11,904 bases of DNA from a virus, in the UHGV virus genome UHGV-2157276; one strand, 5' to 3'. The notes under the pieces are model-generated. The model ran no database searches. It saw only the letters and a program-made list of their open reading frames with translations, and was not told the origin of the DNA. Position numbers and translations under genes: made by a program. This document shows positions 1-11,904 of this stretch, piece by piece; position 1 is the stretch's first letter; each line of letters starts with the position of its first letter.

Positions 1-1284
1 TTACTTCTTCGCCTCTGCAACCACTTTACTACCCACGCCGCGGTTATTGTATTCCCACATGCGGTTGTAGTTAGTGTCATTCAGATTGCGCTGTATTTCG
101 TCGTTATCATCTACGCTGCCGGTATTACCCGCAAACGGACGATTAGAGATCACCGCATCGGCCCACGGTTTAGCCGTGTTAAAACCTTCGTTGATGGCGC
201 TATCACGGATCACCACCTGACCGTTGGTATTGGCATCAACATCCAGCGAGCGGCCCAGTTGCGCCACACCATCACCGAAAGCATTGAAACGGCTGTTTAC
301 GGCGAGGAAACCGTAGTAAATGTTGGACAGCGTAGCCGGTGCAAACACATACGCTTCTTGCTGAGTACGTGAGTTCACCACGCGGAATTCGGTGTTATCG
401 AACACCACTGCGCCGCGACCAGAAACGATATCCACATCCCCTTCAATGTAGCTGTTGGTCACCAGCGTACGCGGCTGACGATTTGTTTCCAGACGGTTCT
501 GCACACCGCTGTTGGTGACAAAGAAGGTGTTCTGACGACCGAGAATGTTAACGTTGTTAATCTGTACCTGGTCACCATCAGTACGCAGTGCCACCGCCGG
601 ATGGTTACCTGCATCTACGCTATCGCCCAGCGTGTTTTCGATGGTCAGATTTTGCAGTTGCAGGCCATTGTTTTGTGACCAGAAGACCGCAGAGCAGAGA
701 ACACCGATACTGTCGCTGCGTTTGCTCTGGCAGCTATCGTACATATACCACGCTGGTTTACCTGGCATATATTTGCCGCGCGGGTTGACGTCGTGACGCC
801 AGTCGGCAGGGCTCATGCCACCATCAAGGGAAAGCCCAATCTTCACATCAATCGGTTTTTCACCTGTACCGTACAGAGTAATTCCACCCGGAGCGGCAGG
901 GACATATACCGTTCCCTGATACTCACCAGGCATCACGGCAATATACTGGCGCTTGTTGGTACGCTTGATAATTGCCGCATCTACCGCCGCCTGAATCGTG
1001 GTATGCGTTACACCTTGAGTGCCCGCCGGGCCGACAACAAAGTCAGGTTGCGCAGGCAGGGTAATCGGGGAAGGATTCCACGCTGCAGCACCTGGTGTCA
1101 GGGATGCAAAATAGTGTTGAGCATCGAAATTCTGCGCTTCTTTTGCCGACAGAATCGGGCGAGAAGAGGTACCAGGCGCGGTTTGATCAGAAGGACGTTG
1201 ATCGGGCGGGGTTGAGCTACAGGCGGTCAGCGTCACGCCAAAAGCCAATGCCAGCGCCAGACGGGAAACTGAAAATGTGTTCAC
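1..1284 (-). CDS. ybhC: YbhC-type lipoprotein (pectinesterase-like / acyl-CoA thioesterase family); host gene flanking the lambda attachment site
   Basis: 427-codon ORF on the minus strand, GTG start at 1282-1284 with GGAG 6 nt upstream, stop at 1-3. N-terminal signal peptide with lipobox LTAC. Sequence recognised from memory as E. coli YbhC. Confidence 0.85.
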   Translation of the reverse strand: MNTFSVSRLALALAFGVTLTACSSTPPDQRPSDQTAPGTSSRPILSAKEAQNFDAQHYFASLTPGAAAWNPSPITLPAQPDFVVGPAGTQGVTHTTIQAAVDAAIIKRTNKRQYIAVMPGEYQGTVYVPAAPGGITLYGTGEKPIDVKIGLSLDGGMSPADWRHDVNPRGKYMPGKPAWYMYDSCQSKRSDSIGVLCSAVFWSQNNGLQLQNLTIENTLGDSVDAGNHPAVALRTDGDQVQINNVNILGRQNTFFVTNSGVQNRLETNRQPRTLVTNSYIEGDVDIVSGRGAVVFDNTEFRVVNSRTQQEAYVFAPATLSNIYYGFLAVNSRFNAFGDGVAQLGRSLDVDANTNGQVVIRDSAINEGFNTAKPWADAVISNRPFAGNTGSVDDNDEIQRNLNDTNYNRMWEYNNRGVGSKVVAEAKK

Positions 1285-1418: not shown

Positions 1419-2489
1419 TTATTTGATTTCAATTTTGTCCCACTCCCTGCCTCTGTCATCACGATACTGTGATGCCATGGTGTCCGACTTATGCCCGAGA
1501 AGATGTTGAGCAAATTTATCGCTTATCTGCTTCTCATAGAGTCTTGCAGACAAACTGCGCAACTCGTGAAAGGTTGGCGGATCCCCTTCGAAGGAGAGAC
1601 CTGATGCTTTTCGTGCGCGCATAAAATACCTTGATACTGTGCCGGATGAAAGCGGTTCACGACGAGTAGATGCAATTATGGTTTCTCCGCCAAGAATCTT
1701 TTTGCATTTATCAAGTGTTTCCTTCATTGATATCCCGAGAGCATCAACATGCAATGTTGTTGGGATGGCAATTTTTACGCCTGTTTTGCTTTGCTCGACA
1801 TAAAGATATCCATCTACGATATCAGACCACTTCATTTCGCATAAATCACCAACTCGCTGCCCGGTAACAACAGCCAGTTCCATTGCAAGTCTAAGCCAAC
1901 ATGGTGATGATTCTGCTGCTTGATAAATTTTCAGGTATTCGTCAGCCGTAAGTCTTGATCTCCTTACCTCTGATTTTGCAGCGCGAGTGGCTGCGACCGG
2001 GTTTGTTGTTATATGGCCTTCAGCCATAGCCTCTCGGAATGCATCGCTCAGTGTTGATCTGATTAACTTGGCTGATGCCGCCTTTCCCTCGTCTATGTAT
2101 CCATTGAGCATTGCCGCAATTTCTTTTGTGGTGATGTCTTCAAGTGGAGCATCAGGCAGACCCCTCCTTATTGCTTTAATTTTGCTCATGTAATTTATGA
2201 GTGTCTTCTGCTTGATTCCTCTGCTGGCCAGGATTTTTTCGTAGCGATCAAGCCATGAATGTAACGTAACGGAATTATCACTGTTGATTCTCGCTGTCAG
2301 AGGCTTGTGTTTGTGTCCTGAAAATAACTCAATGTTGGCCTGTATAGCTTCAGTGATTGCGATTCGCCTGTCTCGGCCTAATCCAAACTCTTTACCCGTC
2401 CTTGGGTCCCTGTAGCAGTAATATCCATTGTTTCTTATATAAAGGTTAGGGGGTAAATCCCGGCGCTCATGACTTCGCCTTCTTCCCAT
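1419..2489 (-). CDS. int: Lambda-type integrase (tyrosine recombinase), 356 aa
   Basis: ORF starts MGRRRSHERRDLPPNLYIRNNGYYCYRDPRTGKEF and ends REWDKIEIK, matching lambda Int as I recall it. ATG at 2487-2489; overlaps xis by 23 nt as in lambda. Confidence 0.95.
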   Translation of the reverse strand: MGRRRSHERRDLPPNLYIRNNGYYCYRDPRTGKEFGLGRDRRIAITEAIQANIELFSGHKHKPLTARINSDNSVTLHSWLDRYEKILASRGIKQKTLINYMSKIKAIRRGLPDAPLEDITTKEIAAMLNGYIDEGKAASAKLIRSTLSDAFREAMAEGHITTNPVAATRAAKSEVRRSRLTADEYLKIYQAAESSPCWLRLAMELAVVTGQRVGDLCEMKWSDIVDGYLYVEQSKTGVKIAIPTTLHVDALGISMKETLDKCKKILGGETIIASTRREPLSSGTVSRYFMRARKASGLSFEGDPPTFHELRSLSARLYEKQISDKFAQHLLGHKSDTMASQYRDDRGREWDKIEIK

Positions 2490-2685
2490 TTCTGATCCTC
2501 TTCAAAAGGCTACCTGTTACTGGTCGATTTAAGTCAACCTTTACCGCTGATTCGTGGAACAGATATTCTCTTCCATCCTTAACCGGAGGAGGGAATATCC
2601 TGCATTCGCGCACCCATCGACGAACTGTTTCAAGGCTTCTTGGGCGTCGCTGGCGAGCGTTCCACTCCTGAAGTGTCAAGTACAT
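2467..2685 (-). CDS. xis: Excisionase Xis, 72 aa
   Basis: ORF MYLTLQEWNARQRRPRSLETVRRWVRECRIFPPPVKDGREYLFHESAVKVDLNRP matches lambda Xis; ATG at 2683-2685; 3' end overlaps the int start. Confidence 0.9.
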   Translation of the reverse strand: MYLTLQEWNARQRRPRSLETVRRWVRECRIFPPPVKDGREYLFHESAVKVDLNRPVTGSLLKRIRNGKKAKS

Positions 2686-2733: not shown

Positions 2734-2844
2734 TTGGTGTTCTTTCAGTTCTTCAATTCGAATATTGGTTATGTCTGCATGTGCTATCTGCGCCCATATC
2801 ATCCAGTGGTCATAGCAGTCATTGATGTTCTCTGCTTCGATATC

Positions 2845-2874
2845 TGGCTGAAAGAGGGGGTTATTAAGGCGTGA
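2845..2874 (+). pseudogene. 3'-terminal remnant (about 10 codons) of a ybcO/nin-region gene whose stop overlaps the rusA start
   Basis: Frame ending [13 protein letters not shown] (stop 2872-2874) overlapping GTG 2871 of rusA resembles the C-terminus of DLP12 YbcO as I recall it. Upstream of about 2845 the frame is antisense xis-flanking DNA with no coherent coding signal. Exact boundary is uncertain. Confidence 0.3.
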
Positions 2875-3233
2875 ATACCTACAGCATCACATTACCCTGG
2901 CCTCCGAGCAATAATCGCTATTACCGCCATAATCGCGGGCGCACACACATCAGCGCAGAAGGGCAGGCATACCGCGATAACGTCACCCGAATCATTAAAA
3001 ACGCAATGCTGGATATCGGCCTGGCTATGCCAGTGAAAATCCGTATTGAGTGCCACATGCCGGATCGCCGTCGCCGTGACCTGGATAATCTGCAAAAAGC
3101 CGCTTTTGACGCACTCACCAAAGCAGGTTTCTGGCTGGATGATGCTCAGGTCGTTGATTACCGCGTTGTGAAGATGCCTGTTACCAAAGGTGGGAGGCTG
3201 GAACTGACCATCACCGAAATGGGGAATGAATGA
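2871..3233 (+). CDS. rusA: RusA-type Holliday junction resolvase, 120 aa
   Basis: GTG start at 2871. Protein [26 protein letters not shown]...[12 protein letters not shown] is recognised as RusA (nin-region resolvase of lambdoid phages / DLP12). Confidence 0.9.
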
Positions 3234-3370
3234 TGTTTGAGTTTAATATGGCAGAACTTCTTCGCCACCGCTGGATGCGCCTGCGCTTATATCGTTTCCC
3301 CAGTTCTGTTTTGACCGATTACCGAATACTGAGGAATTACGCCAAAACCCTGACAGGAGCAGGAGTATGA
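3230..3370 (+). CDS. ylcG: Small protein YlcG-like, 46 aa; not in the supplied ORF track
   Basis: ATGATG at 3230-3235 overlaps the rusA stop (3231-3233). Hand translation gives [46 protein letters not shown], stop TGA at 3368-3370. Matches DLP12 YlcG from memory. Confidence 0.6.
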
Positions 3371-3455
3371 AGTCAGAGATAACAATCAACTAATACTGTT
3401 TTATTGATTTTTGCTTGTAATTGGCGTTCTGGTCTGATTTTTGTGGAGTAAGTTG

Positions 3456-3839
3456 ATGCGTGATATTCAGATGGTTCTTGAGCGTTGGGGAGCGTGGGCG
3501 GCTAATAATCATGAAGATGTGACCTGGTCGTCCATTGCCGCCGGTTTTAAGGGATTAATTACTTCAAAAGTAAAATCTCGCCCGCAATGTTGTGACGATG
3601 ACGCGATGATCATTTGCGGGTGCATGGCCCGTCTGAAAAAGAACAACAGCGATTTGCACGATTTATTAGTAGATTATTATGTAGTCGGTATGACATTCAT
3701 GTCACTGGCAGGTAAGCATTGCTGCTCTGATGGTTATATCGGGAAAAGGTTACAGAAGGCTGAGGGTATAATTGAAGGGATGTTAATGGCATTAGATATC
3801 CGGTTAGAGATGGATATCGTTGTTAATAACTCTAATTAA
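3456..3839 (+). CDS. quuD: Late-gene antiterminator Q (QuuD-type), 127 aa
   Basis: ATG at 3456 preceded by GGAG (3445-3448, 7-nt spacer). Protein [24 protein letters not shown]...[11 protein letters not shown]. The ORF track starts at an upstream TTG (3441), which is less likely. Confidence 0.85.
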
Positions 3840-3849
3840 TATGCCAATT

Positions 3850-3891
3850 GTTTACTAAAAATTATTAAAAATGGGGCGTTGAGACGCCCCC
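3850..3891 (-). terminator. Intrinsic terminator for the minus-strand porin transcript
   Basis: Stem GGGGCGT / loop TGAG / ACGCCCC at 3873-3890; on the minus strand it is followed by ATTTTTAATAATTTTT. Confidence 0.5.
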
Positions 3892-3978
3892 AAAAATAAA
3901 GGGTAATATATAACAGAAGGTTTATATAGTTAGAAGCAAGGTTGTGCTCCTAAAGGAAGTGGCTTGAGGGAGCCACTT

Positions 3979-4012
3979 ATATGTTGGGGAGGCAAAGCCT
4001 CCCGCAACATAT
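3979..4012. terminator. Long stem-loop between Q and the nmpC 3' end; possible plus-strand terminator or mRNA-stabilising hairpin
   Basis: ATATGTTG-GGGAGGC / loop AAA / GCCTCCC-g-CAACATAT, a 15-bp stem with one bulge, followed on the plus strand by CTTTTAG. A second hairpin AAGTGGCT-tgaggg-AGCCACTT lies at 3957-3978. Confidence 0.4.
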
Positions 4013-4027
4013 CTTTTAGTAATCAAA

Positions 4028-5110
4028 TTAGAACTGGTAAACCATACCTACAGCAACGATATCATCGGTAGCAACGCCAGATGCTTTCGTGAAATCGCTC
4101 TTATCAATCAGGTTGATTTTGTAATCAACAAAAGTGGACATATTTTTGTTGAAGTAATAGGTTGCACCTACATCAATATATTCAACCAGGTCCTGATCAC
4201 CCCACGCACCCAAGTCTTTTCCTTTAGATTGCAGGTAAGCAACGGACGGACGCAGACCGAAGTCGAACTGATATTGTGCAACTACTTCGAAGTTTTGTGC
4301 TTTGTTGGCAATATGGTTATTACCAAAAACAGTCATGTTCTGGGTTTCAGAATAGGTGGTAGCCAGATAGATGTTGTTCGCATCATATTTCAGACCAGCT
4401 GCCCATACTTCAGCATTTTGACCAGATGCATTCAGGCTGTTGTTACCGTAGATAACCTGATTATTAGTGCGGTCAGATTTAGCATAGGTTGCACCTACAC
4501 CGAATCCTTCATACTCATAAGTAGTGGAGAAACCGAAACCATCACCATTAGCTTCAGTTACGTCAGTGCGGTCATTTTTACCCTGATACTGAGCAGCAAA
4601 GTTCAGACCATCAACCAGACCAAAGAAGTCATTGTTACGATAAGTTGCAACACCTGTGGTGCGACCAGTCATGAATACATCTGTTTGGGTCCAGGTATCG
4701 CCACCGAATTCTGGCAGAACGTCGGTCCATGCACCAATATCGTATGCTACACCGTAGTTACGGCCATAATCGATGGAGCCGTAGTCACCGAATTTCAGGC
4801 CAGCGAAGGCAAGACGGGTTTTATCTTTGGAGGAACCTTGAGATTCAGCGCGGTTGCCTTTGAATTCATATTCCCACTGACCGAAACCAGTCAGTTGATC
4901 GTTGATTTGGGTTTCACCTTTGAAGCCAAGACGGGCATAAGTAGTATCACCATCATCTGCATCATTAGAGGAGAAGTAGTGCTTAGCATTAACTTTCCCG
5001 TACAGATCCAGCTTGTTACTGTCTTTATTATAAATTTCAGCTGCCTGAGCAGACATCGCCATCAGTACTGATGCAGCTACAGCAGAAATTGCCACTGTTA
5101 ATTTTTTCAT
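4028..5110 (-). CDS. nmpC: General-diffusion porin of the OmpC/PhoE/NmpC family, apparently intact (360 aa)
   Basis: Start ATG at 5108-5110 gives [23 protein letters not shown] signal peptide then [16 protein letters not shown]; C-terminus ends VAVGMVYQF with the terminal Phe typical of porins. The ORF track's upstream start (5185) adds 25 non-porin residues. No IS interruption. Confidence 0.9.
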
Positions 5111-5140
5111 CGTGAGCCCTTTTTTTGAACTATTATTAAA

Positions 5141-5170
5141 AAATGATGTCACTGCAAATGATGTCACTGC
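5141..5170. repeat. Perfect tandem direct repeat, 2 x 15 bp (AAATGATGTCACTGC), 31-60 nt upstream of the nmpC start codon
   Basis: Read directly: 5141-5155 and 5156-5170 are identical. Confidence 0.85.
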
Positions 5171-5356
5171 GCGATAAATATTCATCTAATCAATGTGATT
5201 ATTTCAAGATGTAAGTTTTGGTTTCTCATTTGATTTGTGAAGTAGATCTCTATTTTTATCTGAACTTTTTCTATCGAATCCTATTCATGGCTCTTGGCTG
5301 AATAAAAATAAATCTATTAGCCAATTTATATTAATGGCTGTTATTTATAAGTGCTC

Positions 5357-5362
5357 TATAAT
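5357..5362 (+). promoter_or_regulatory. Candidate -10 hexamer of the late promoter (pR'-like)
   Basis: Perfect TATAAT on the plus strand about 190 nt upstream of the terminator at 5552-5584, similar spacing to lambda pR'/tR' (about 194-nt 6S RNA). No convincing -35 found. Confidence 0.3.
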
Positions 5363-5551
5363 TTGAAGATTCAATTTAAACCAGCTAAAAATAACGCTGG
5401 AAATTATTTGTTGGTTATTTGTTGAGATTTGCTTATGTATTTGTAGTGGTGTTTTCAATACTCGGTAGCATTCTCGCAAATATCATTTAGTGGTTTACGT
5501 ACGTAAAAAATTGGTTATGCTGTTAAGAGTGGTTACTTCGTCACACAGCTT

Positions 5552-5584
5552 AAACCCGCCGTCGAGCGGGTTTTTCCATTTTTT
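5552..5584 (+). terminator. Intrinsic terminator upstream of the lysis genes (tR'-like)
   Basis: AAACCCGC / loop CGTCGA / GCGGGTTT followed by TTTTTCCATTTTTT on the plus strand. Confidence 0.6.
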
Positions 5585-5712
5585 GAGTCTCGATATTAGC
5601 TGATAACCCAATACCTGAGTTATTCACTGACTCCGAGTCTGTTACGTTTCTGCTTTTTTGCGATACGTTGTATTCCCTCAATTTACACCCGCTTTGTCTG
5701 CGAGGTGGGGTT

Positions 5713-5928
5713 ATGAAATCCATGGATAAGTTAACAACGGGTGTCGCCTATGGCACCTCAGCAGGTAGTGCCGGTTACTGGTTTTTACAGCTGCTCGATA
5801 AAGTCACGCCCTCACAGTGGGCAGCAATAGGTGTGCTGGGTAGCCTGGTATTTGGCCTGCTGACGTACCTGACAAACCTTTATTTCAAGATTAAAGAAGA
5901 TAAGCGCAAGGCTGCGAGAGGTGAATAA
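5713..5928 (+). CDS. essD: Phage-21-type pinholin with dual-start motif (antiholin/holin), 71 aa
   Basis: ATG at 5713 preceded by [80 protein letters not shown]; two TM segments, Met1-Lys-Ser-Met4 dual start, charged C-terminus. The ORF track start (5668) is upstream with no RBS. Confidence 0.9.
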
Positions 5929-6425
5929 TGCCTCCATCATTACGAAAAGCCGTTGCTGCTGCTATTGGTGGCGGAGCAATTGCTATAGCATCAGTGTTAA
6001 TTACTGGCCCAAGTGGTAACGATGGTCTGGAAGGTGTCAGCTACGTACCATACAAAGATATCGTTGGCGTATGGACTGTATGTCACGGACACACCGGAAA
6101 AGACATCATGCTCGGTAAAACGTATACCAAAGCAGAATGCAAAGCACTCTTGAATAAAGACCTTGCCACTGTCGCCAGACAAATTAACCCGTACATCAAA
6201 GTCGATATACCGGAAACAACGCGCGGCGCTCTTTACTCATTCGTTTACAACGTGGGTGCTGGCAATTTCAGAACATCGACGCTTCTTCGCAAAATAAACC
6301 AGGGCGATATCAAAGGCGCATGTGATCAGCTACGTCGCTGGACATATGCTGGCGGTAAGCAATGGAAAGGTCTCATGACTCGTCGTGAGATTGAGCGTGA
6401 AATCTGTTTGTGGGGTCAGCAATGA
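5928..6425 (+). CDS. rrrD: SAR endolysin (T4-lysozyme-like, phage 21 R-type), 165 aa
   Basis: Start overlaps the holin stop (TAATG). N-terminal Gly/Ala-rich weakly hydrophobic segment [18 protein letters not shown] (signal-anchor-release domain), followed by an E..D..T motif region ([17 protein letters not shown]). Confidence 0.9.
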
Positions 6426-6883
6426 ACAGAGTAACCGCGATTATCTCCGCTCTGGTTATCTGCATCATCGTCTACCTGTCATGGGCTGTTAATCATTACC
6501 GTGATAACGCCATTACCTACAAAGCCCAGCGCGACAAAAATGCCAGAGAACTGAAGCTGGCGAACGCGGCAATTACTGACATGCAGATGCGTCAGCGTGA
6601 TGTTGCTGCGCTCGATGCAAAATACACGAAGGAGTTAGCTGATGCGAAAGCTGAAAATGATGCTCTGCGTGATGATGTTGCCGCTGGTCGTCGTCGGTTG
6701 CACATCAAAGCAGTCTGTCAGTCAGTGCGTGAAGCCACCACCGCCTCCGGCGTGGATAATGCAGCCTCCCCCCGACTGGCAGACACCGCTGAACGGGATT
6801 ATTTCACCCTCAGAGAGAGGCTGATCACTATGCAAAAACAACTGGAAGGAACCCAGAAGTATATTAATGAGCAGTGCAGATAG
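6422..6883 (+). CDS. rzpD: Spanin inner-membrane subunit Rz, 153 aa
   Basis: ATG at 6422 overlaps the endolysin stop (ATGA). N-terminal TM segment [19 protein letters not shown] then coiled-coil-like sequence. From the start of this gene the DNA appears lambda-like. Confidence 0.9.
6642..6824 (+). CDS. rzoD: Spanin outer-membrane lipoprotein Rz1, 60 aa, embedded in the +1 frame of Rz
   Basis: [20 protein letters not shown] lipoprotein signal with lipobox, Pro-rich mature region [16 protein letters not shown]; entirely inside Rz. Confidence 0.85.
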
Positions 6884-6884
6884 A

Positions 6885-6906
6885 GTTGCCCATATCGATG
6901 GGCAAC
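6885..6906. terminator. Hairpin between convergent Rz and bor; possible bidirectional terminator
   Basis: GTTGCCCAT / ATCG / ATGGGCAAC, 9-bp perfect arms, 2 nt after the Rz stop and 9 nt before the bor stop. U-tracts are weak on both strands. Confidence 0.4.
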
Positions 6907-6914
6907 TCATGCAA

Positions 6915-7208
6915 TTATTGTGAGCAATACACACGCGCTTCCAGCGGAGTATAAATGCCTAAAGTAATAAAACCGAGCAATCCATTTACGAATGTTTGCT
7001 GGGTTTCTGTTTTAACAACATTTTCTGCGCCGCCACAAATTTTGGCTGCATCGACAGTTTTCTTCTGCCCAATTCCAGAAACGAAGAAATGATGGGTGAT
7101 GGTTTCCTTTGGTGCTACTGCTGCCGGTTTGTTTTGAACAGTAAACGTCTGTTGAGCACATCCTGTAATAAGCAGGGCCAGCGCAGTAGCGAGTAGCATT
7201 TTTTTCAT
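6915..7208 (-). CDS. bor: Bor outer-membrane lipoprotein, 97 aa
   Basis: MKKMLLATALALLITGC signal with lipobox, then AQQTFTVQNKPAAVAPKETITHHFFVSGIG...; matches lambda Bor from memory. Confidence 0.9.
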   Translation of the reverse strand: MKKMLLATALALLITGCAQQTFTVQNKPAAVAPKETITHHFFVSGIGQKKTVDAAKICGGAENVVKTETQQTFVNGLLGFITLGIYTPLEARVYCSQ

Positions 7209-7498
7209 GGTGTTATTCCCGATGCTTTTTGAAGTTCGCAGAATCGTATGTGTAGAAAATTAAACAAACCCTAAACAATGAGTTGAAATTTCATATTGTT
7301 AATATTTATTAATGTATGTCAGGTGCGATGAATCGTCATTGTATTCCCGGATTAACTATGTCCACAGCCCTGACGGGGAACTTCTCTGCGGGAGTGTCCG
7401 GGAATAATTAAAAACGATGCACACAGGGTTTAGCGCGTACACGTATTGCATTATGCCAACGCCCCGGTGCTGACACGGAAGAAACCGGACGTTATGAT

Positions 7499-7909
7499 TT
7501 AGCGTGGAAAGATTTGTGTAGTGTTCTGAATGCTCTCAGTAAATAGTAATGAATTATCAAAGGTATAGTAATATCTTTTATGTTCATGGATATTTGTAAC
7601 CCATCGGAAAACTCCTGCTTTAGCAAGATTTTCCCTGTATTGCTGAAATGTGATTTCTCTTGATTTCAACCTATCATAGGACGTTTCTATAAGATGCGTG
7701 TTTCTTGAGAATTTAACATTTACAACCTTTTTAAGTCCTTTTATTAACACGGTGTTATCGTTTTCTAACACGATGTGAATATTATCTGTGGCTAGATAGT
7801 AAATATAATGTGAGACGTTGTGACGTTTTAGTTCAGAATAAAACAATTCACAGTTTAAATCTTTTCGCACTTGATCGAATATTTCTTTAAAAATGGCAAC
7901 CTGAGCCAT
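7499..7909 (-). CDS. ybcV: YbcV-like protein (DUF1398 family), function unknown; 136 aa from the best-supported start
   Basis: ORF on minus strand; the ATG at 7907-7909 ([11 protein letters not shown]...) has AAGG 8 nt upstream. In-frame upstream starts at 7951 (ATG) and 8032 (GTG) lack an RBS. AT-rich gene. Confidence 0.7.
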
Positions 7910-8194
7910 TGGTAAAACCTTCCATGTGATACGAGGGCGCGTAGTTTGCATTATCGTTTTTATCGTTTCAATCTGGTCTGACCTCTTTGTGTTTTGTTGA
8001 TGATTTATGTCAAATATTAGGAATGTTTTCACTTAATAGTATTGGTTGCGTAACAAAGTGCGGTCCTGCTGGCATTCTGGAGGGAAATACAACCGACAGA
8101 TGTATGTAAGGCCAACGTGCTCAAATCTTCATACAGAAAGATTTGAAGTAATATTTTAACCGCTAGATGAAGAGCAAGCGCATGGAGCGACAAA

Positions 8195-8401
8195 ATGAAT
8201 AAAGAACAATCTGCTGATGATCCCTCCGTGGATCTGATTCGTGTAAAAAATATGCTTAATAGCACCATTTCTATGAGTTACCCTGATGTTGTAATTGCAT
8301 GTATAGAACATAAGGTGTCTCTGGAAGCATTCAGAGCAATTGAGGCAGCGTTGGTGAAGCACGATAATAATATGAAGGATTATTCCCTGGTGGTTGACTG
8401 A
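8195..8401 (+). CDS. ybcW: YbcW-like small protein, 68 aa, function unknown
   Basis: ATG at 8195 with GGAG 7 nt upstream; [68 protein letters not shown]. Confidence 0.7.
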
Positions 8402-8565
8402 TCACCATAACTGCTAATCATTCAAACTATTTAGCCTGTGACAGAGCCAACACGCAGTCTGTCACTGTCAGGAAAGTGGTAAAACTGCAACTCAATTACT
8501 GCAATGCCCTCGTAATTAAGTGAATTTACAATATCGTCCTGTTCGGAGGGAAGAACGCGGGATGT

Positions 8566-8760
8566 TCATTCTTCATCACTTTTAATTGATGTATATGCTC
8601 TCTTTTCTGACGTTAGTCTCCGACGGCAGGCTTCAATGACCCAGGCTGAGAAATTCCCGGACCCTTTTTGCTCAAGAGCGATGTTAATTTGTTCAATCAT
8701 TTGGTTAGGAAAGCGGATGTTGCGGGTTGTTGTTCTGCGGGTTCTGTTCTTCGTTGACAT
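8566..8760 (-). CDS. ylcI: YlcI-like small protein (64 aa) with predicted ribbon-helix-helix DNA-binding fold
   Basis: MSTKNRTRRTTTRNIRFPNQMIEQINIALEQKGSGNFSAWVIEACRRRL: basic N-terminal tail, beta-strand NIRFP, helix, G-x-N/S turn, second helix. This is the RHH (CopG/Arc/ParD-like) pattern. Confidence 0.7.
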   Translation of the reverse strand: MSTKNRTRRTTTRNIRFPNQMIEQINIALEQKGSGNFSAWVIEACRRRLTSEKRAYTSIKSDEE

Positions 8761-8959
8761 GAGGTTGCCCCGTATTCAGTGTCGCTGATTTGTATTGTCT
8801 GAAGTTGTTTTTACGTTAAGTTGATGCAGATCAATTAATACGATACCTGCGTCATAATTGATTATTTGACGTGGTTTGATGGCGTAGATGCACGTTGTGA
8901 CATGTAGATGATAATTATTATCATTTTGCGGGTCCTTTCCGGCGATCCGACAGGTTACG

Positions 8960-8971
8960 GGGCGGCGACCT
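8960..8971. other. cosN: lambda 12-nt cohesive-end site (GGGCGGCGACCT), flanked by cosQ-like and cosB-like sequence
   Basis: Exact GGGCGGCGACCT preceded by ...GATCCGACAGGTTACG (lambda right end) and followed by TCGCGGGTTTTCGCTATTTATGAAAATTTTCCGG (lambda left end). Confidence 0.85.
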
Positions 8972-9148
8972 CGCGGGTTTTCGCTATTTATGAAAATTTT
9001 CCGGTTTAAGGCGTTTCCGTTCTTCTTCGTCATAACTTAATGTTTTTATTTAAAATACCCTCTGAAAAGAAAGGAAGCGACAGGTGCTGAAAGCGAGCTT
9101 TTTGGCCTCTGTCGTTTCCTTTCTCTGTTTTTGTCCGTGGAATGAACA

Positions 9149-9694
9149 ATGGAAGTCAACAAAAAGCAGCTGGCTGACATTTTCGGTGCGAGTATCCGTA
9201 CCATTCAGAACTGGCAGGAACAGGGAATGCCCGTTCTGCGAGGCGGTGGCAAGGGTAATGAGGTGCTTTATGACTCTGCCGCCGTCATAAAATGGTATGC
9301 CGAAAGGGATGCTGAAATTGAGAACGAAAAGCTGCGCCGGGAGGTTGAAGAACTGCGGCAGGCCAGCGAGGCAGATCTCCAGCCAGGGACTATTGAGTAC
9401 GAACGCCATCGACTTACGCGTGCGCAGGCCGACGCACAGGAGCTGAAAAATGCCAGAGACTCCGCTGAAGTGGTGGAAACCGCATTCTGTACTTTCGTGC
9501 TGTCGCGGATCGCAGGTGAAATTGCCAGTATTCTCGACGGGATCCCCCTGTCGGTGCAGCGGCGTTTTCCGGAACTGGAAAACCGACATGTTGATTTCCT
9601 GAAACGGGATATCATCAAAGCCATGAACAAAGCAGCCGCGCTGGATGAACTGATACCGGGGTTGCTGAGTGAATATATCGAACAGTCAGGTTAA
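9149..9694 (+). CDS. nu1: Terminase small subunit Nu1, 181 aa, full length
   Basis: MEVNKKQLADIFGASIRTIQNWQEQGMPVLRGGGKGNEVLYDSAAVIKWYAERDAEIENEKLRR...; N-terminal winged-HTH. Overlaps the A start by 26 nt as in lambda. Confidence 0.95.
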   Translation: MEVNKKQLADIFGASIRTIQNWQEQGMPVLRGGGKGNEVLYDSAAVIKWYAERDAEIENEKLRREVEELRQASEADLQPGTIEYERHRLTRAQADAQELKNARDSAEVVETAFCTFVLSRIAGEIASILDGIPLSVQRRFPELENRHVDFLKRDIIKAMNKAAALDELIPGLLSEYIEQSG

Positions 9695-10730
9695 CAGGCT
9701 GCGGCATTTTGTCCGCGCCGGGCTTCGCTCACTGTTCAGGCCGGAGCCACAGACCGCCGTTGAATGGGCGGATGCTAATTACTATCTCCCGAAAGAATCC
9801 GCATACCAGGAAGGGCGCTGGGAAACACTGCCCTTTCAGCGGGCCATCATGAATGCGATGGGCAGCGACTACATCCGCGAGGTGAATGTGGTGAAGTCTG
9901 CCCGTGTTGGTTATTCCAAAATGCTGTTGGGTGTTTATGCCTACTTCATAGAGCATAAGCAGCGCAACACACTTATCTGGTTGCCGACGGATGGTGATGC
10001 CGAGAACTTTATGAAAACCCACGTTGAGCCGACCATCCGCGATATTCCGTTGCTGCTGGCGCTGGCTCCGTGGTATGGCAAAAAGCACCGGGATAACACG
10101 CTCACCATGAAGCGTTTTTCCAATGGTCGTGGCTTCTGGTGCCTGGGCGGTAAAGCGGCAAAAAACTACCGTGAAAAGTCGGTGGATGTGGCGGGTTATG
10201 ATGAACTTGCTGCCTTTGATGAGGATATTGAACAGGAAGGCTCTCCGACGTTCCTTGGCGACAAACGTATTGAAGGCTCGGTCTGGCCAAAGTCCATCCG
10301 TGGCTCCACCCCCAAAGTGAGAGGCACCTGCCAGATTGAGCGTGCAGCCAGTGAATCCCCGCATTTTATGCGTTTTCATGTTGCCTGTCCGCACTGCGGG
10401 GAGGAGCAGTACCTTAAATTTGGCGATAAAGAGACGTCGTTTGGCCTCAAATGGACGCCGGATGATCCCTCCAGCGTGTTTTATCTCTGCGAACATAATG
10501 CCTGCGTCATCCGCCAGCAGGAACTGGACTTCACTGATGCCCGTTATATCTGCGAAAAGACCGGGATCTGGACCCGTGATGGCATTCTCTGGTTTTCGTC
10601 ATCCGGTGAAGAGATTGAGCCGCCGGACAGCGTGACCTTTCACATCTGGACGGCGTACAGCCCGTTCACCACCTGGGTGCAGATTGTCAAAGACTGGATG
10701 AAAACGAAAGGGGATACCTTCTGCCCGTAA
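9669..10730 (+). pseudogene. A: Terminase large subunit gpA, N-terminal 350 of about 641 codons, truncated at a deletion junction
   Basis: MNISNSQVNRLRHFVRAGLRSLF...[14 protein letters not shown] then 3 unrelated codons (FCP) and stop. Walker-A-like KSARVGYSK is present; the C-terminal nuclease half is absent. Confidence 0.85.
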
Positions 10731-11904
10731 GGTGAATGGTAAGGCGCTTTCAGCGGATATAACACTGACGCCGAAAGATATTGGTACGCTTAACTCAACA
10801 ACAATGTCATTCAGCGGTGGTGCTGGTTGGTTCAAATTAGCAACGGTAACCATGCCACAGGCGAGTTCTGTTGTTTCAATTACGTTGATTGGTGGCGCGG
10901 GATTTAACGTGGGGTCACCTCAACAGGCAGGTATATCTGAACTTGTTTTGCGTGCAGGTAATGGTAATCCGAAGGGGATTACTGGTGCTTTATGGCAGCG
11001 CACATCGACAGGGTTTACAAATTTTGCCTGGGTCAATACATCTGGTGATACTTACGATATTTACGTTGCAATCGGAAATTATGCGACTGGTGTAAATATT
11101 CAATGGGATTATACCAGTAATGCCAGCGTGACGATTCATACGTCACCAGCATATTCTGCTAATAAGCCGGAAGGGTTAACGGACGGTACAGTTTATTCAC
11201 TCTATACGCCATCAGAGCAGTTTTATCCGCCTGGCGCACCAATCCCGTGGCCATCAGATACCGTTCCGTCTGGCTATGCCCTGATGCAGGGGCAGACTTT
11301 TGACAAATCTGCATACCCGAAACTTGCAGCCGCTTATCCGTCAGCCGTGATCCCTGATATGCGTGGCTGGACGATTAAGGGCAAACCCGCCAGTGGTCGT
11401 GCCGTATTGTCTCAGGAACAGGACGGCATTAAATCGCACACCCACAGCGCCAGCGCATCCAGTACGGATTTGGGGACGAAAAACACATCGTCGTTTGATT
11501 ACGGAACCAAATCCACGAATAACACCGGGGCGCATACCCATAGTATTAGCGGGACTGCAAATAGTGCCGGTGCGCACCAACACAAGAGTTCCGGTGCATT
11601 TGGTGGCACGAACACGAGCATTTTCCCTAATGGTTATACCGCGATTTCAAATCTAAGCGCGGGGATTATGAGCACAACAAGCGGTAGTGGCCAGACTCGT
11701 AATGCAGGGAAGACATCATCAGATGGTGCTCATACCCACTCGCTGTCCGGCACTGCTGCAAGCGCAGGCGCACATGCACATACTGTCGGTATTGGTGCTC
11801 ATACGCACTCCGTTGCGATTGGCTCACACGGACACACCATCACCGTTAACGCTGCTGGTAACGCGGAAAACACCGTCAAAAACATCGCATTTAACTATAT
11901 TGTG
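10720..11904 (+). pseudogene. stf: Side tail fibre (Stf-type) gene fragment, 5'-truncated, open to the end of the window
   Basis: Frame 1 is open from 10702 to 11904 and is not in the ORF track because it has no stop. Hand translation ends ...[60 protein letters not shown], the His-x-His repeat C-terminal region of lambda-family Stf. Possible internal starts are GTG 10732 and ATG 10804. Confidence 0.75.

Follow-up and report, generated by a model that had tools for sequence, protein, structure and literature searches.

A strain-private, probably neutral 15-bp tandem duplication in the 5' leader of a prophage nmpC porin gene

Contingency loci, as found in Neisseria, Haemophilus and others, contain many repeat units of 1-8 nt that are located in a promoter spacer or in an ORF and are polymorphic both between and within strains. 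The systems closest to the locus analysed here are the nmpC/lc porin genes of lambdoid prophages, whose gene, promoter, CRP control and leader have been known since 1986. According to the text on PnmpC in Onstead et al. (PMC11677980), 5' RACE assigns the transcription start of K-12 nmpC to the G in ...atcGcGcag, and this is, according to the same text, also the G given by Blasband 1986 and Coll 1994. Moreover, the homology arm of primer PnmpC-T-P1, with which a terminator was placed "downstream of PnmpC" and whose sequence is given in the same source, ends in ...gaatatttatcgcg(c)agtg. Finally, the E. coli nmpC mRNA has been noted as a target of the sRNA RybB (PMC3333887). The duplication allele that we report here is itself undescribed.

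The DNA in question is a stretch of 11,904 nucleotides from the UHGV virus genome UHGV-2157276, which we refer to as the window. It is a defective DLP12-like lambdoid prophage that adjoins ybhC. The closest complete genome is that of E. coli A14, which is 100% identical over positions 1-2842 and 99.8% identical over 2841-11904, and whose annotation was mapped onto the window to obtain the gene coordinates (Table 1). A full comparison with A14 reveals a 15-bp insertion, three SNPs (9442, 9448 and 9500) and one 5,879-bp deletion, and no other differences. The deletion, whose junction at 2841/2842 lies just upstream of rusA, removes the segment from just past the excisionase gene through ea22, recT, ren and the ybcN/ninE/ybcO region. 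The prophage is therefore further degraded than its A14 counterpart, and an ORF running across the junction looks spurious. The three SNPs are grouped within 59 bp of nohD, the Nu1-like small terminase gene, and could have come in together, as a small recombination patch, instead of by three separate mutations. As a lineage marker the Nu1/NohD protein is much too widespread, with 32,489 blocks in an exact look-up. On the plus strand at 5552-5573, approximately 140 nt upstream of essD, AAACCCGCCGTCGAGCGGGTTT is a strong hairpin that resembles an intrinsic terminator, with a run of T after it; weak Rfam matches to Trp_leader and sroH coincide with it. The late operon probably has its tR'-type terminator here; if so, the intergenic region of PnmpC would also contain a late promoter, divergent from PnmpC.

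The porin encoded in the window reaches the NCBIfam cut-off of the OmpC porin subfamily and, over its full length, shares 90% of its residues with Lc of phage PA-2. Its gene is oriented opposite to the late antiterminator Q gene on one side and the holin/endolysin genes on the other, an arrangement that is a feature of nmpC/lc loci. All defining features that we tested are present, and the locus belongs to the nmpC/lc prophage porin family. Moreover, the approximately 100 nt upstream of the ATG, which comprise the -35 and -10 elements, the start-site zone and the RBS, are those of K-12 nmpC except for an extra 15 nt. The identity to PA-2 Lc and to the K-12 upstream region justifies the name nmpC, which the gene had been given in an earlier note made from the sequence alone.

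Table 1. Features of the nmpC promoter and leader and genes of the surrounding prophage, in window coordinates.
Feature	Position	Strand	Basis or remark
A/U-rich stretch and Shine-Dalgarno (AGGG 5117-5120)	5117..5140	-	unchanged; comparison with K-12 and other alleles
ATG-proximal second copy	5141..5155	-	effectively a 15-nt insertion at ~+16/+18 of the mRNA; missing in all relatives
Promoter-proximal (5') copy of GCAGTGACATCATTT	5156..5170	-	probably ~first 15-17 nt of the nmpC mRNA; start site by way of the PnmpC text of PMC11677980
Probable transcription start zone, G at 5172 or 5170	5170..5172	-	PnmpC text and primer in PMC11677980, identity to K-12
Probable -10 hexamer GAATAT of PnmpC	5178..5183	-	position relative to start G and -35; invariant in six divergent alleles
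Probable -35 hexamer TTGAAA of PnmpC, 18-nt spacer	5202..5207	-	invariant across compared alleles; TTGAA core common to ompD orthologues
CRP site TGTGAAGTAGATCTCT, centre ~72 bp upstream of start, class I-like position	5236..5251		annotation of PA-2 lc record J02580.1
ybhC	1-1284	-	A14 mapping
integrase	1419-2489	-	A14 mapping
excisionase	2467-2685	-	A14 mapping
rusA	2871-3233	+	A14 mapping
ylcG	3230-3370	+	A14 mapping
quuD (Q antiterminator)	3456-3839	+	A14 mapping
porin nmpC/lc-type, intact, 360 aa, without IS5 interruption	4028-5110	-	A14 mapping, PA-2 Lc identity
essD	5713-5928	+	A14 mapping
rrrD	5928-6425	+	A14 mapping
rzpD	6422-6883	+	A14 mapping
bor	6915-7208	-	A14 mapping
ybcV, ybcW, ylcI, nohD	7499-9694	mixed	A14 mapping
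truncated large terminase fused to tail-protein fragment	from 9669	+	A14 mapping

On the plus strand, positions 5141-5170 read AAATGATGTCACTGC AAATGATGTCACTGC, two identical copies arranged head-to-tail. For this interval Tandem Repeats Finder reports a period of 15, 2.0 copies, 100% matches and a score of 60; the repeat consists of exactly 2.0 copies, as the flanking bases extend it on neither side. It is the sole perfect tandem duplication with a unit of at least 10 bp in the 11.9-kb window, and the 15-bp unit does not recur elsewhere in the window, even if three mismatches are allowed. The chance expectation for perfect duplications with a unit of at least 15 bp is approximately 1.6e-5 per window for the composition of the window and approximately 1.1e-4 per window for an AT-rich intergenic composition, and none of 200 shuffled windows produced a tandem unit longer than 10 bp. 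The sequence, Tandem Repeats Finder and the shuffles thus agree on the perfect 2 x 15-bp tandem repeat that the earlier note had described, and the repeat is real and far beyond chance. Other tandem repeats are present in the window. In the same intergenic region as the nmpC repeat, at 5404-5424, TTATTTGTTGG is perfectly repeated 1.9 times; since the K-12 version differs by a SNP, this does not look like a recent duplication. A further repeat inside ylcI (8721-8750) has a 15-nt period, 2.1 copies and 87% matches.

The porin gene is encoded on the minus strand, its ATG being the reverse complement of 5108-5110. On the mRNA strand the repeat reads GCAGTGACATCATTT GCAGTGACATCATTT, with the two units at -60 to -46 and -45 to -31 from the ATG, and the mRNA continues 3' of the second unit as UUUAAUAAUAGUUCAAAAAAAGGGCUCACG-AUG. 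An A/U-rich stretch and the AGGG thus follow directly 3' of the second copy, which confirms the position immediately upstream of the nmpC RBS region that had been assigned to the repeat. Since the upstream region of approximately 100 nt is identical to that of K-12, the K-12 start-site data transfer directly. The start would be the G at 5172 or the one at 5170, the latter being the first base of the unit, and in either case the unit would represent the first 15-17 nt of the mRNA. Hence, the location of the repeat in the porin leader is supported by the K-12 5' RACE start, as given in the PnmpC text of PMC11677980, together with the sequence identity by which we infer the start site in the window.

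Further upstream, the CRP annotation of J02580.1 (1363-1383) corresponds to window positions 5236-5251, where the sequence is the same. A simple sigma-70 scan of 4900-5800 detected no promoter; PnmpC itself (TTGAAA, 18 nt, GAATAT) is below the threshold of the scan, which is hence uninformative. Inspection of the duplication junction for a new promoter revealed no -10 hexamer that is suitably spaced from the duplicated GTGACA. As for a new CRP site, the junction offers AGTGA-N6-TTGCA, a poor half-site match which is missed at two or fewer mismatches. In the -35 region, the block GAAACTTATTATTGAA is common to prophage nmpC and to ompD of Salmonella, Citrobacter, Enterobacter and Lelliottia, and from about -10 onward these chromosomal ompD genes have an unrelated, longer leader. 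This suggests that the prophage gene may have kept the promoter of its chromosomal ancestor, combined with a different leader.

The survey of copy number covered the complete genomes of E. coli, a single representative genome for each species, and contigs from viruses and metagenomes. Neither megablast nor word-11 blastn detected a 50-mer across the junction (10 + 30 + 10 nt) in the 5,426 complete RefSeq E. coli genomes; a control showed that the BLAST low-complexity filter leaves this 50-mer unmasked. The exact 30-mer GCAGTGACATCATTTGCAGTGACATCATTT had 0 matches in the GTDB species-representative genomes, 0 in IMG/VR and 0 in the JGI metagenome contigs. The single-copy 55-mer is found at 2,411 places in 2,380 complete E. 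coli genomes, with 2,249 records at least 99% identical. Over a comparison of 561 nt the best intact matches reach 97.3%, corresponding to 546 of 561 positions, and the 15-nt gap is therefore the only difference. Strain TA8571, which at 99.1% appeared to be a closer match, was rejected, as the target duplication of an IS1 element inflates its identity and the strain is single-copy. All 25 phage records listed of the 36 that match (434, PA-2, mEp332, ev243 and others) are single-copy as well, and one invariant copy each is present in the alleles of K-12, A14, TA8571, PA-2, BL21 and E. coli W and in the yedK-linked allele. Since the junction has no match in the genomes and contigs searched and A14 is nearly identical, the duplication is a very recent change confined to the source genome. 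Some of the single-copy alleles are only approximately 80% identical further upstream, yet their unit is invariant, which suggests that the leader is under constraint at its 5' end.

The same core promoter and leader, including an identical 15-mer, are also found outside the lysis cassette, in E. coli Z1323HEC0475, where they drive a porin gene beside yedK. In E. coli W only the promoter, the leader and the first approximately 15 codons are left; this remnant carries no annotation and is flanked by a partial IS200/IS605 tnpA gene on one side and by ybcM on the other.

These results bear directly on the proposal of the earlier note that the repeat might be a phase-variation-like copy-number switch, that is, a contingency repeat whose frequent changes in copy number toggle the porin. 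The perfection of the tandem repeat and its proximity to a gene for a surface protein fit this idea. However, the repeat has just two copies of a long unit, and it lies between the probable start site and the RBS, where it leaves both the -35/-10 spacing and the reading frame unaltered. Most importantly, a single copy is present at 2,411 of 2,411 other loci, and none of the other genomes, phages, viral contigs and metagenome contigs searched has the two-copy junction. The earlier note had itself proposed a comparison of copy number across strains and had named an invariant repeat number, along with equal reporter expression, as the outcome that speaks against the switch; an invariant single copy is what this comparison returned. 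The population survey effectively refutes phase variation, which we consider exceedingly improbable. It is also very unlikely that the duplication is a sequencing or assembly artefact and that the true genome has one copy. The two-copy form is known from a single sequence only, but errors of short- or long-read assembly do not typically take the form of a perfect 15-bp tandem duplication in unique, non-homopolymer sequence, and the rest of the window is clean when compared to A14, with three SNPs and no stray small indels.

Concerning its origin, a recent slipped-strand event had been suggested for the duplication as one of two options. The age part of this claim stands, as the copies are identical and the one-copy relatives have otherwise identical flanks. 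The mechanism does not fare as well: inspection of the duplication boundaries (CGC/GCAG...ATTT/TTT, with slashes marking the boundaries) revealed no microhomology, so that slipped-strand mispairing in its simple form does not suggest itself as the mechanism. Alternatively, the two copies could be the footprint of an insertion sequence, namely a target-site duplication left after entry and excision of the element. The nmpC promoter region does receive IS insertions, as illustrated by IS1 in TA8571 and JNEC-KY204. However, we know of no common E. coli IS element that makes 15-bp target duplications, and loss of an IS in bacteria rarely leaves both target copies perfectly abutted. Furthermore, there is no IS remnant between the copies, and among the records inspected none has an element at this exact site flanked by the 15-mer. 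A footprint of this kind is thus extremely improbable.

The IS1 element of TA8571 (L001 6365-7135) is inserted just after the nmpC -35 hexamer, is accompanied by the 9-bp target duplication gaaataatc, and splits the promoter, with the CRP site and the -35 on one side and the -10 on the other; IS1 is also present in JNEC-KY204. Such insertions show that the nmpC promoter is a recurrent target of IS elements.

Could the duplication have been selected? It might be an adaptive cis-regulatory mutation, in which the extra 15 nt would alter the fate of the nmpC mRNA and would have been selected for an altered porin level, either because a new 5'-terminal hairpin slows 5'-end-dependent decay or because the RybB-seed-like GCAGUG is doubled. 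We consider such a mutation, by either route, unlikely. The porin ORF is intact here, so that its expression could matter, and the invariance of the unit among divergent alleles is also in line with a function. Moreover, the fold of the leader alone is predicted to gain a weak 5'-terminal hairpin of approximately -3.4 to -4 kcal/mol through the duplication, with -8.3 kcal/mol for two copies versus -4.9 kcal/mol for one, and -8.9 versus -4.9 kcal/mol in a second run. However, this hairpin is no better than what shuffled sequence provides: the z-score of leader folding is approximately -0.1 with or without the duplication, and no significant structure is detected. RBS accessibility is likewise unaltered in ViennaRNA partition function calculations on the leader together with 75 coding nt. 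The unpaired probability, 0.39 for the Shine-Dalgarno sequence and 0.47 over -20 to +15 around the AUG, does not differ between one, two and three copies. In Rfam no family reached the gathering threshold, and a relaxed threshold yielded sub-threshold matches on the terminator hairpin only.

For the RybB route, the 16-nt 5' domain of RybB from MG1655 was scanned against the porin mRNA. Each copy of the unit offers a 6-bp match, GCAGUG, to RybB nt 3-8, with predicted energies of -10.7 and -10.5 kcal/mol, which would favour a doubled site. The match is one pair shorter than the seven contiguous seed base pairs at least that we looked for in a RybB target, and GCAGUG is at chance level, with 8 occurrences in the window versus 5.8 expected. 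Furthermore, the best predicted RybB site of the mRNA is not in the unit but in the coding sequence, where the 7-nt seed complement CAGUGGC in codons 5-7 (5091-5097, minus strand) pairs more strongly (7 bp, -13.9 kcal/mol). In the nmpC allele of E. albertii, however, the leader begins with a complement to all 8 nt of the RybB seed, GCAGUGGC (-17.4 kcal/mol), in the position that is occupied by GCAGUGAC in E. coli. The start of the leader may be an auxiliary RybB site in some species. A duplication that occurs once carries no selection signal.

The same data speak against the other suggestion of the earlier note, that the two copies are paired binding sites for a regulator or an sRNA. Whereas both sites of a tandem operator should be conserved in homologous loci, every homologous locus examined has a single copy. 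An evolved two-site design is unsupported because the pair exists in one genome only; in addition, there is no significant RNA structure, and the best sRNA match of the unit is the 6-nt RybB seed. That a 5' hairpin and a second RybB-seed-like motif together alter mRNA stability or sigma-E/RybB control, and that this change was selected, is in our estimate distinctly unlikely. If it were true, the conserved 15-mer would be a previously unrecognised post-transcriptional control element.

With good confidence, we favour a strain-private, recent and probably neutral tandem duplication, of which neutrality and the exact start site are the parts that we infer. A replication or repair error would have generated the 15-bp tandem duplication in the 5' untranslated leader of nmpC. 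Through the first copy, the promoter, the start of transcription and the first transcribed nucleotides would be retained, while the second copy would amount to a 15-nt insertion at approximately +16/+18, extending the leader from approximately 45-47 nt to approximately 60-62 nt. The CRP-promoter geometry upstream is unaltered, and so are the A/U-rich stretch, the Shine-Dalgarno sequence, the start codon and the early coding region downstream. Little or no change in porin expression is likely, because the upstream geometry and the downstream RBS and start codon are untouched. Nevertheless, the predicted hairpin or the second RybB-seed complement could modestly alter mRNA stability or sRNA control.

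The contribution of the window is one strain-private indel allele of little significance. The duplication can serve to mark the lineage, and the alleles with one and two copies provide a natural pair for probing the role of the first 15 nt of the nmpC leader in mRNA stability and in control by RybB. The useful result is a negative one: there is no evidence of repeat-based phase variation of the nmpC porin in E. coli.

How does the locus compare with the known systems? With contingency loci such as those of Neisseria and Haemophilus it shares no more than a superficial feature, the proximity of a tandem repeat to a gene for a surface protein. Here, two 15-nt copies are located in a leader, and no polymorphism is seen in approximately 2,400 loci. 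Of two hallmarks of contingency loci, copy-number polymorphism among isolates and a placement that affects spacing or frame, neither was found, the placement being judged from a start site taken from the literature. The ompD genes of Salmonella and their orthologues in Citrobacter and Enterobacter are closer. They encode an orthologous type of porin (74-79% identity) and share the -35 region with nmpC, and early in their coding sequence, much as in nmpC, they contain (G)CAGUGGC, which is complementary to the RybB seed. However, their 69-nt leader (PMC3333887) is unrelated and the 15-nt unit is absent from it. PA-2 lc (J02580.1; Blasband et al. 1986), whose protein is 90% identical, has the same promoter-proximal CRP site and the same leader, but contains the unit only once and differs by a few substitutions further upstream. 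Finally, the K-12 DLP12 nmpC locus has the same gene order (rusA, ylcG, quuD, the porin on the opposite strand, essD, rrrD, rzpD) and an identical sequence over the approximately 100 nt upstream of the ATG. Unlike DLP12, the prophage of the window resides beside ybhC and not at the DLP12 site, and whereas the K-12 porin gene is interrupted by IS5, the ORF in the window is intact and its leader unit is doubled.
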